A stretch of DNA of 12,666 nucleotides from the NCBI RefSeq assembly GCF_003334315.1, contig NZ_QOWR01000083.1. One strand, written 5' to 3'. The translations under genes and the position numbers were made by a program. Numbering within the stretch: the stretch's first letter is position 1; each line of letters begins with the position of its first letter. Under the pieces are notes generated by a model that did not search any database, was not told the DNA's origin, and saw nothing but the letters and a program-made list of their open reading frames with translations. Below are positions 1-835 of this stretch, in pieces. Origin of the DNA: Escherichia coli. GTDB taxonomy: Bacteria; Pseudomonadota; Gammaproteobacteria; Enterobacterales; Enterobacteriaceae.

Positions 1-149
1 GGTTGAGAAGCGGTGTAAGTGAACTGCAGTTGCCATGTTTTACGGCAGTGAGAGCAGAGATAGCGCTGATGTCCGGCGGTGCTTTTGCCGTTACGCACCA
101 CCCCGTCAGTAGCTGAACAGGAGGGACAGCTGATAGAAACAGAAGCCAC
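1..149 (-). CDS. insA: IS1 InsA transposition protein, N-terminal 49 codons (partial, runs off window)
   Basis: GTG start at 147-149 on the minus strand. Translation: [49 protein letters not shown], with the CxxC...CxxC zinc-finger arrangement typical of InsA. Confidence 0.8.
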
Positions 150-204
150 TGGAGCACCTCAAAAACACCATCATACACTAAATCAGTAAGTTGGCATCAT
201 CACC
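1..204 (-). mobile_element. IS1 insertion sequence, left end (partial; element continues beyond the window start)
   Basis: Reverse complement of 1-204 reads GGTGATGATGCCAACTTACTGATTTAGTGTATGATGGTG...GTGGCTTCTGTTTCTATCAGCTGTCCC..., which matches the IS1 left terminal inverted repeat and the start of insA as I recall them. It differs at one base from the canonical IRL (GATGATG here, GATGCTG recalled). The gspD reading frame carries stops at 20-22, 50-52 and 62-64, so this segment is not gspD coding sequence. Confidence 0.85.
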
Positions 205-835
205 CATCCTCGCCACCCCAAGCATCGTAACGCTGGATAATAAACTCGCGTCCTTCAACGTGGGGCAGGATGTGCCGGTGCTATCCGGGTCACAGACCAC
301 TTCAGGGGATAACGTCTTTAATACCGTCGAACGCAAAACGGTGGGGACAAAACTCAAAGTTACTCCGCAGGTCAATGAAGGCGACGCGGTGTTGCTCGAA
401 ATAGAGCAGGAAGTCTCCAGCGTTGACTCTTCCTCTAACTCGACGCTCGGCCCGACGTTTAATACCCGTACTATTCAAAACGCCGTGCTGGTCAAAACCG
501 GTGAAACGGTGGTCCTGGGCGGATTGCTGGATGATTTTTCTAAAGAGCAAGTGTCAAAGGTTCCTCTGCTTGGCGATATTCCTTTAGTGGGGCAACTCTT
601 CCGCTATACCTCCACCGAGCGCGCTAAACGCAACCTGATGGTATTTATCCGTCCGACGATTATCCGTGACGATGATGTTTATCGCTCACTGTCAAAAGAG
701 AAATACACCCGTTACCGTCAGGAGCAACAACAGCGGATCGACGGGAAATCAAAAGCGCTGGTTGGCTCGGAAGATTTGCCGGTGCTGGATGAAAACACGT
801 TCAACAGTCACGCCCCTGCGCCATCGTCACGGTGA
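205..835 (+). pseudogene. gspD: gspD (T2SS outer-membrane secretin), 3' fragment encoding the C-terminal ~209 residues; 5' part displaced by IS1
   Basis: Open frame from the IS1 junction to TGA at 833-835. Translation (PILATPSIVTLDNKLASFNVGQDVPV...VVLGGLLDD...VPLLGDIPLVGQLFRYT...NLMVFIRPTII) is a secretin C-domain. No in-frame coding sequence exists upstream of position 205. Full-length GspD is about 650 aa (recalled). Confidence 0.85.

Follow-up and report, generated by a model that had tools for sequence, protein, structure and literature searches.

IS1 abuts a 3' remnant of the secretin gene gspD in an Escherichia coli T2SS-alpha locus with a frameshifted gspK

The window analysed here, a stretch of 12,666 nucleotides of E. 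coli DNA, opens inside an IS1 element and continues through gspD'-EFGHIJK'LMO, bfr, bfd, chiA and the 3' end of tuf, which is the gene order of the T2SS-alpha locus and identifies it as such. The plus strand carries intact copies of gspE (845-2326), gspF (2323-3519), gspG (3529-3966), gspH (3974-4483), gspI (4480-4857), gspJ (4850-5437), gspL (6348-7511), gspM (7508-7969) and gspO (7969-8646). These are followed on the minus strand by intact bfr (8675-9151), bfd (9223-9417) and chiA (9586-12279), and by the last 96 nt of the two-copy gene tuf, coding for EF-Tu (12571-12666, minus strand, coordinates mapped from E. coli L6-21), inside which the window ends. By comparison with the annotated genome of L6-21, all genes other than gspD and gspK are full length and have no internal stops.

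Positions 205-12666 are collinear with L6-21 at 99.97% identity (four mismatches, leaving aside an 80-bp deletion in gspK), and with the draft contig SAHT01000041.1 (hereafter L020) at 99.99% (one mismatch). In the intact gsp genes, the only coding differences from L6-21 are GspF P167L and GspI Q105R (window positions 2822 and 4793). Both change amino acids; two differences are too few for a test of relaxed selection. The GspE of the window is the common allele; it is L020, and not the window, that has the rare GspE S264P (window-equivalent position 1634), just past the Walker A motif.

The window is alike to the K-12 Gsp/T2SS-alpha system in gene content, gene order and the neighbouring chiA, and shows more than 99.9% DNA identity to phylogroup-A strains. 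In K-12 the operon is cryptic and repressed by H-NS (PMC5797941), and the chitinase ChiA is the known (only) substrate of this secretion system (PMC5797941, PMC3707838). Unlike K-12, the window has two essential components broken, GspD and GspK, and thus represents a decayed copy of the system.

Positions 1-204 (minus strand) correspond to IS1 nt 1-204, the left end of the element, comprising the left terminal inverted repeat (IRL), the insA promoter region and insA codons 1-49, and are cut off by the window edge. The window therefore holds 204 nt of an element whose complete form has 768 bp and encodes insA/insB' with a programmed -1 frameshift. The segment reads away from the gsp genes, opposite to the operon. 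It is identical end to end at 203 of 204 positions to IS1A and to the IS1 copies of E. coli HH194M and of the rearranged loci L002 and L016 described below (E ~1e-103), and at all 204 positions to both IS1B copies of E. coli strain ES6. This bears out the earlier note, which had read positions 1-204 as IS1 with a terminal inverted repeat ending at position 204.

The IRL itself covers 23 bp (182-204, minus strand; GGTGATGATGCCAACTTACTGAT, the start of the reverse complement) and matches IS1A at 22 of 23 positions and the ES6 IS1B copies at all 23. The sole difference from IS1A lies in this repeat, at window position 197, where an A replaces the C of IS1 position 8; A is also the base that the right inverted repeat (IRR) has at that position. 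Among the 5,426 complete E. coli genomes, 339 have the A variant of the IRL, with 2,076 occurrences in all, so IS1 elements bearing it are a common, transposition-competent subtype.

The insA frame opens with a GTG at IS1 nt 56 (window position 149, minus strand), about 55 nt from the IRL, and InsA residues 1-49 (window 3-149, minus strand) match the NCBIfam models for the IS1 zinc finger and transposase, NF050000 and NF033558. A promoter-like site at 170-197 (minus strand), composed of ATGCCA, a 16-nt spacer and TATGAT, points into IS1, and we read it as the putative insA promoter within the IRL. It is the single promoter-like match in window positions 1-1000, where shuffled sequences are expected to give 0.8, so that there is no excess of such sites. 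The same consensus scan of positions 1-1000 found no outward promoter-like site directed towards gspD' or gspE.

The match to IS1 stops at base 204, which is the terminal base of the element, and the letters at the junction read CATCACC followed by CATCCTCGC. Since bases 203-204 are CC and differ from the GA found at gspD nt 1321-1322, the boundary between positions 204 and 205 is unambiguous. Positions 205-835 (plus strand) then hold a 3' remnant of gspD, equivalent to nt 1323-1953, which opens with the final base of codon 441 and runs through codons 442-650 to the stop, without any mismatch to the gspD of L6-21 and L020. The 209 full codons of this remnant correspond to residues 419-627 of the solved GspD structure of E. 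coli K-12 (PDB 5WQ7), with 100% identity. The absent portion amounts to 1322 of 1953 nt (67.7%). The observation of the earlier note, namely that gspD keeps only its C-terminal ~209 residues at this junction and that its 5' two-thirds are missing from it, is thus confirmed.

What is left of gspD is the C-terminal part of the secretin domain, without start codon, signal peptide and N0-N3 domains. Consistently, the GspD profile TIGR02517 is matched over positions 432-600 only, with 246 bits against a curated cut-off of 351. With 209 of 650 codons and a score below this cut-off, the remnant is recognizable as a C-terminal secretin domain but not as a full-length GspD. Judged from its sequence, it is a gene fragment rather than a functional member of the GspD family, and it is unable to make a secretin since it lacks both a start codon and the N-terminal domains. 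We infer that gspD is a null allele in this strain. The further proposal that a T2SS deprived of its secretin would not export its substrates is sound reasoning, and the earlier interpretation is in this respect supported.

The second lesion lies in gspK, which is a pseudogene (5430-6333, plus strand) carrying the 80-bp deletion mentioned above (junction at 5527-5536). The repeats between which the deletion lies, GCCAGCTTCA and GCCAGCCTCA, are direct, imperfect and 10 bp long. The frame shifts after codon 35, and the native start yields a product of 39 aa, while the 3' part of the gene still matches the GspK model NF037980 over positions 73-304. The same 80-bp deletion is present in L020, in a second draft locus (L023) and in ES6, the latter being the only one of the 5,426 complete genomes to have it, with its gspK labelled 'frameshifted' by PGAP. 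In all three, gspD is full length (650 aa). Moreover, the assembly collection has 117 blocks with the GspF L167 allele, which marks the lineage of the window, and gspD is intact in all 24 of the contigs read, which came from the blocks with the longest contigs (the 10-20 kb class comprises 35 blocks for this allele). Some GspK fragments on record bear Shigella names. A Shigella origin, considered for this reason, was set aside in view of the 99.97-99.99% identity of the region to E. coli isolates.

Parsimony across these relatives, rather than a dated tree, suggests that the gspK frameshift probably came first and that IS1 entered gspD later, at the level of the strain. GspK caps the tip of the pseudopilus and is generally required for type II secretion. 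As the gspK deletion is common to relatives with an intact gspD, the secretion machinery was probably already non-functional before IS1 arrived, and export had most likely been lost by then.

Comparable disruptions of this operon exist in other genomes. In E. coli HH194M and nine other complete genomes, an IS1 element lies in gspD in the same orientation as in the window, and the gene is split into N- and C-terminal halves annotated as pseudogenes by PGAP. This insertion is at about gspD nt 792, 539 bp upstream of the window junction, and both of its ends can be seen together with a 9-bp target duplication, GAGAGCGAG. Its IRL is of the canonical C variant, unlike the A variant of the window. 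In F5656C1 and FMU073332 (L002) and in LR898868.1 (L016), an IRL end abuts a truncated gsp gene, again oriented as in the window, with the breakpoint at about gspD nt 466 in the former locus and inside gspK in the latter, and loss of gspC is directly visible there. Two further complete genomes have IS1 inside the gsp operon.

The draft contig CATRDB010000074.1 (GCA_958308055.1, L059; 12,304 bp) resembles the window in that it runs from IS1 through a 3' stub of gspD, gspE-O, bfr, bfd and chiA to tuf. It differs in having the IRR and not the IRL at the junction, an insertion point 498 bp further downstream (window-equivalent position 703), another gspK lesion, and an IS1 overhang of 209 nt against the 204 nt of the window. 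Variant positions of IS1 were considered as the cause of the 204-nt overhang and rejected, the compared copies being identical at nt 9-261. In three human-gut metagenome contigs (L039, L042 and L043), gspD passes into an unrelated common sequence at about window-equivalent position 296; this is not IS1 and may be another mobile element.

The exact junction of the window was found as a single-piece match in none of the 5,426 complete RefSeq E. coli genomes, nor in the GTDB species representatives, whether the IRL SNP was masked or unmasked, nor in JGI metagenome contigs, and the junction ORFs of 214 aa and 191 aa have no exact protein record. GspD C-terminal fragments of 185 aa and 164 aa are on record, and the contigs read for them, again from the longest-contig blocks (67 blocks for the GspD fragment fall in the 10-20 kb class), carry point frameshifts or other inserted sequence instead of this junction. 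Similarly, the contigs reached through GspF L167 and through GspK fragments have an intact gspD or other lesions.

Both ends of the window lie in repeats, the multi-copy IS1 and the two-copy tuf, and the draft contigs L020, L021 and L059 likewise end inside tuf. The window is thus presumably a whole short-read contig broken in IS1 and in tuf, and this breakage would account for the missing second IS1 end. A window that opens inside an insertion sequence is often the mere product of a break in a draft assembly. The earlier note had rightly pointed out that the region past the other end of IS1 lies out of reach, as the window stops inside the element. Contig ends of this kind are also error-prone, which raises the question of whether IS1 was wrongly joined to a gspD that is in truth intact. 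We regard such an artefact as very improbable: the join falls on the last base of IS1, as expected from transposition, an outcome with a chance of about 1 in 768 for a chimera, and comparable true IS1 junctions in gspD are known from complete genomes. The position of the join exactly at the terminus of the element points instead to a genuine transposition-type end.

How this end came to lie in gspD admits two readings whose odds are roughly even, a simple insertion on the one hand and a deletion or rearrangement on the other. In the case of a simple insertion, gspD would be interrupted, with its 5' part surviving upstream of IS1, and the 9 bp following the junction (205-213, CATCCTCGC) would be the duplicated target and recur at the other end of the element. 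This prediction is made because the IS1 copies of HH194M and ES6 have 9-bp duplications, GAGAGCGAG in the former and GCGGCATTA and CGTTCTGAC in the latter. In that event, gspD up to nt 1331, ending in CATCCTCGC, would abut the IRR end of the element, GGTAATGACTCC (GGTAATGACTCCAAC...). In the other case, to which we assign a probability slightly below one half, an IS1-mediated adjacent deletion or a recombination between IS1 copies would have removed or displaced the DNA upstream of gspD nt 1322. IS1, or a second copy of it, would first have been located upstream, gspC would be gone along with the 5' portion of gspD and possibly more DNA, no target duplication would be present, and the element would truly replace the 5' two-thirds of the gene. 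Interruption and replacement are therefore equally possible descriptions of this locus.

Deletions that have an IS1 end at their breakpoint did occur at this locus in other genomes: gspC is absent from F5656C1 and FMU073332 along with the 5' portion of gspD, and no duplication is seen there, while LR898868.1 has lost everything from gspC through the 5' part of gspK. In addition, none of 13 read-through products predicted for a simple insertion (GspD residues 1-443 running into the IRR, computed with 7-14 bp of duplicated target, either of two IS1 variants and either of two start codons) is present in a collection of 15 billion proteins, where the equivalent product of the known HH194M-type insertion is found in 33 contigs. 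The absence of these products leans slightly towards a deletion or rearrangement, but a source genome missing from the collection, or annotated without pseudogene products, would explain it just as well. Simple insertions do occur, as shown by the 9-bp duplications at all three of the IS1 copies whose flanks were checked in HH194M and ES6. Moreover, no IS1 lies upstream of gspC in L020, the nearest relative, and the upstream IS1 of ES6 is oppositely oriented, so that a one-step adjacent deletion would put the IRR, and not the IRL, next to gspD.

Whichever of these two routes was taken, the overall explanation that we hold to be very likely is a transposition of IS1 into the gspD of an already defective and normally silent operon. 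In a phylogroup-A-like E. coli host, an active IS1 copy of the common subtype with the variant IRL would have jumped into gspD between nt 1322 and 1323, in an orientation opposed to the operon. An IS1 of exactly the window sequence is active in the lineage: ES6 carries it twice beside the operon, in identical copies with 9-bp duplications. These lie in the gspA-gspC spacer and in the chiA-tuf spacer; the target of the second (CGTTCTGAC) corresponds to window positions 12481-12489 and is uninterrupted there. IS1 would stop or truncate any transcription coming from the gspC promoter. Its arrival would be a later and probably neutral event, since gspK was already frameshifted in the lineage and H-NS normally silences the operon.

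IS1 is classically polar in both orientations, and a polar effect on gspE-O, as the earlier note had envisaged, is plausible on this basis. It would have little consequence here, since polarity and lost export alike fall on an operon that is silent and already broken. The same polarity speaks against an adaptive rewiring, in which IS1 would set gspE-O apart from the gspC promoter region, silenced by H-NS, and would drive or de-silence the genes downstream. A precedent for such an effect is offered by the cryptic bgl operon, which insertions of IS1 and IS5 activate. The silencing of the gsp operon by H-NS (PMC5797941) would also provide the repression from which the downstream genes could be released. 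However, the IS1 end has no outward promoter-like site in the consensus scan, leaving an activating role unsupported, and no working secretion machine would be possible with a truncated gspD and a frameshifted gspK, so that we consider this scenario highly unlikely. We give just as little credence to its combination with a larger IS1 rearrangement, in which a deletion or inversion between copies would have taken away or displaced gspC together with the 5' portion of gspD, and the insertion might also uncouple gspE-O from H-NS, so that the remaining pseudopilus genes are expressed for a role other than secretion.

Transposition into an operon already out of use makes the gspD lesion a routine IS1-made pseudogene, an already known kind of event and not a novel one. 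The process is identical to the pseudogene formation by expansion of insertion sequences in Shigella and IS-rich E. coli. Unlike the decay seen in Shigella, the window is more than 99.9% identical to commensal and environmental E. coli, and two lesions are visible. An advanced stage of the same decay is found in Shigella boydii 965-58 (AKNA01000074.1), which has a transposase-like gene next to gspA, a split gspD, a deletion running from gspE into gspK, and gspO and chiA that are also broken.

For this strain, both gspD and gspK should be annotated as pseudogenes, and T2SS-alpha should be scored as non-functional. Several distinct gspK frameshifts, independent IS1 insertions and IS1-linked deletions are present among the loci examined, and over the few dozen loci covered here the cryptic operon is seen to decay repeatedly in E. 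coli and Shigella. Such recurrent decay is consistent with selection for retaining the operon being weak or absent in many lineages.
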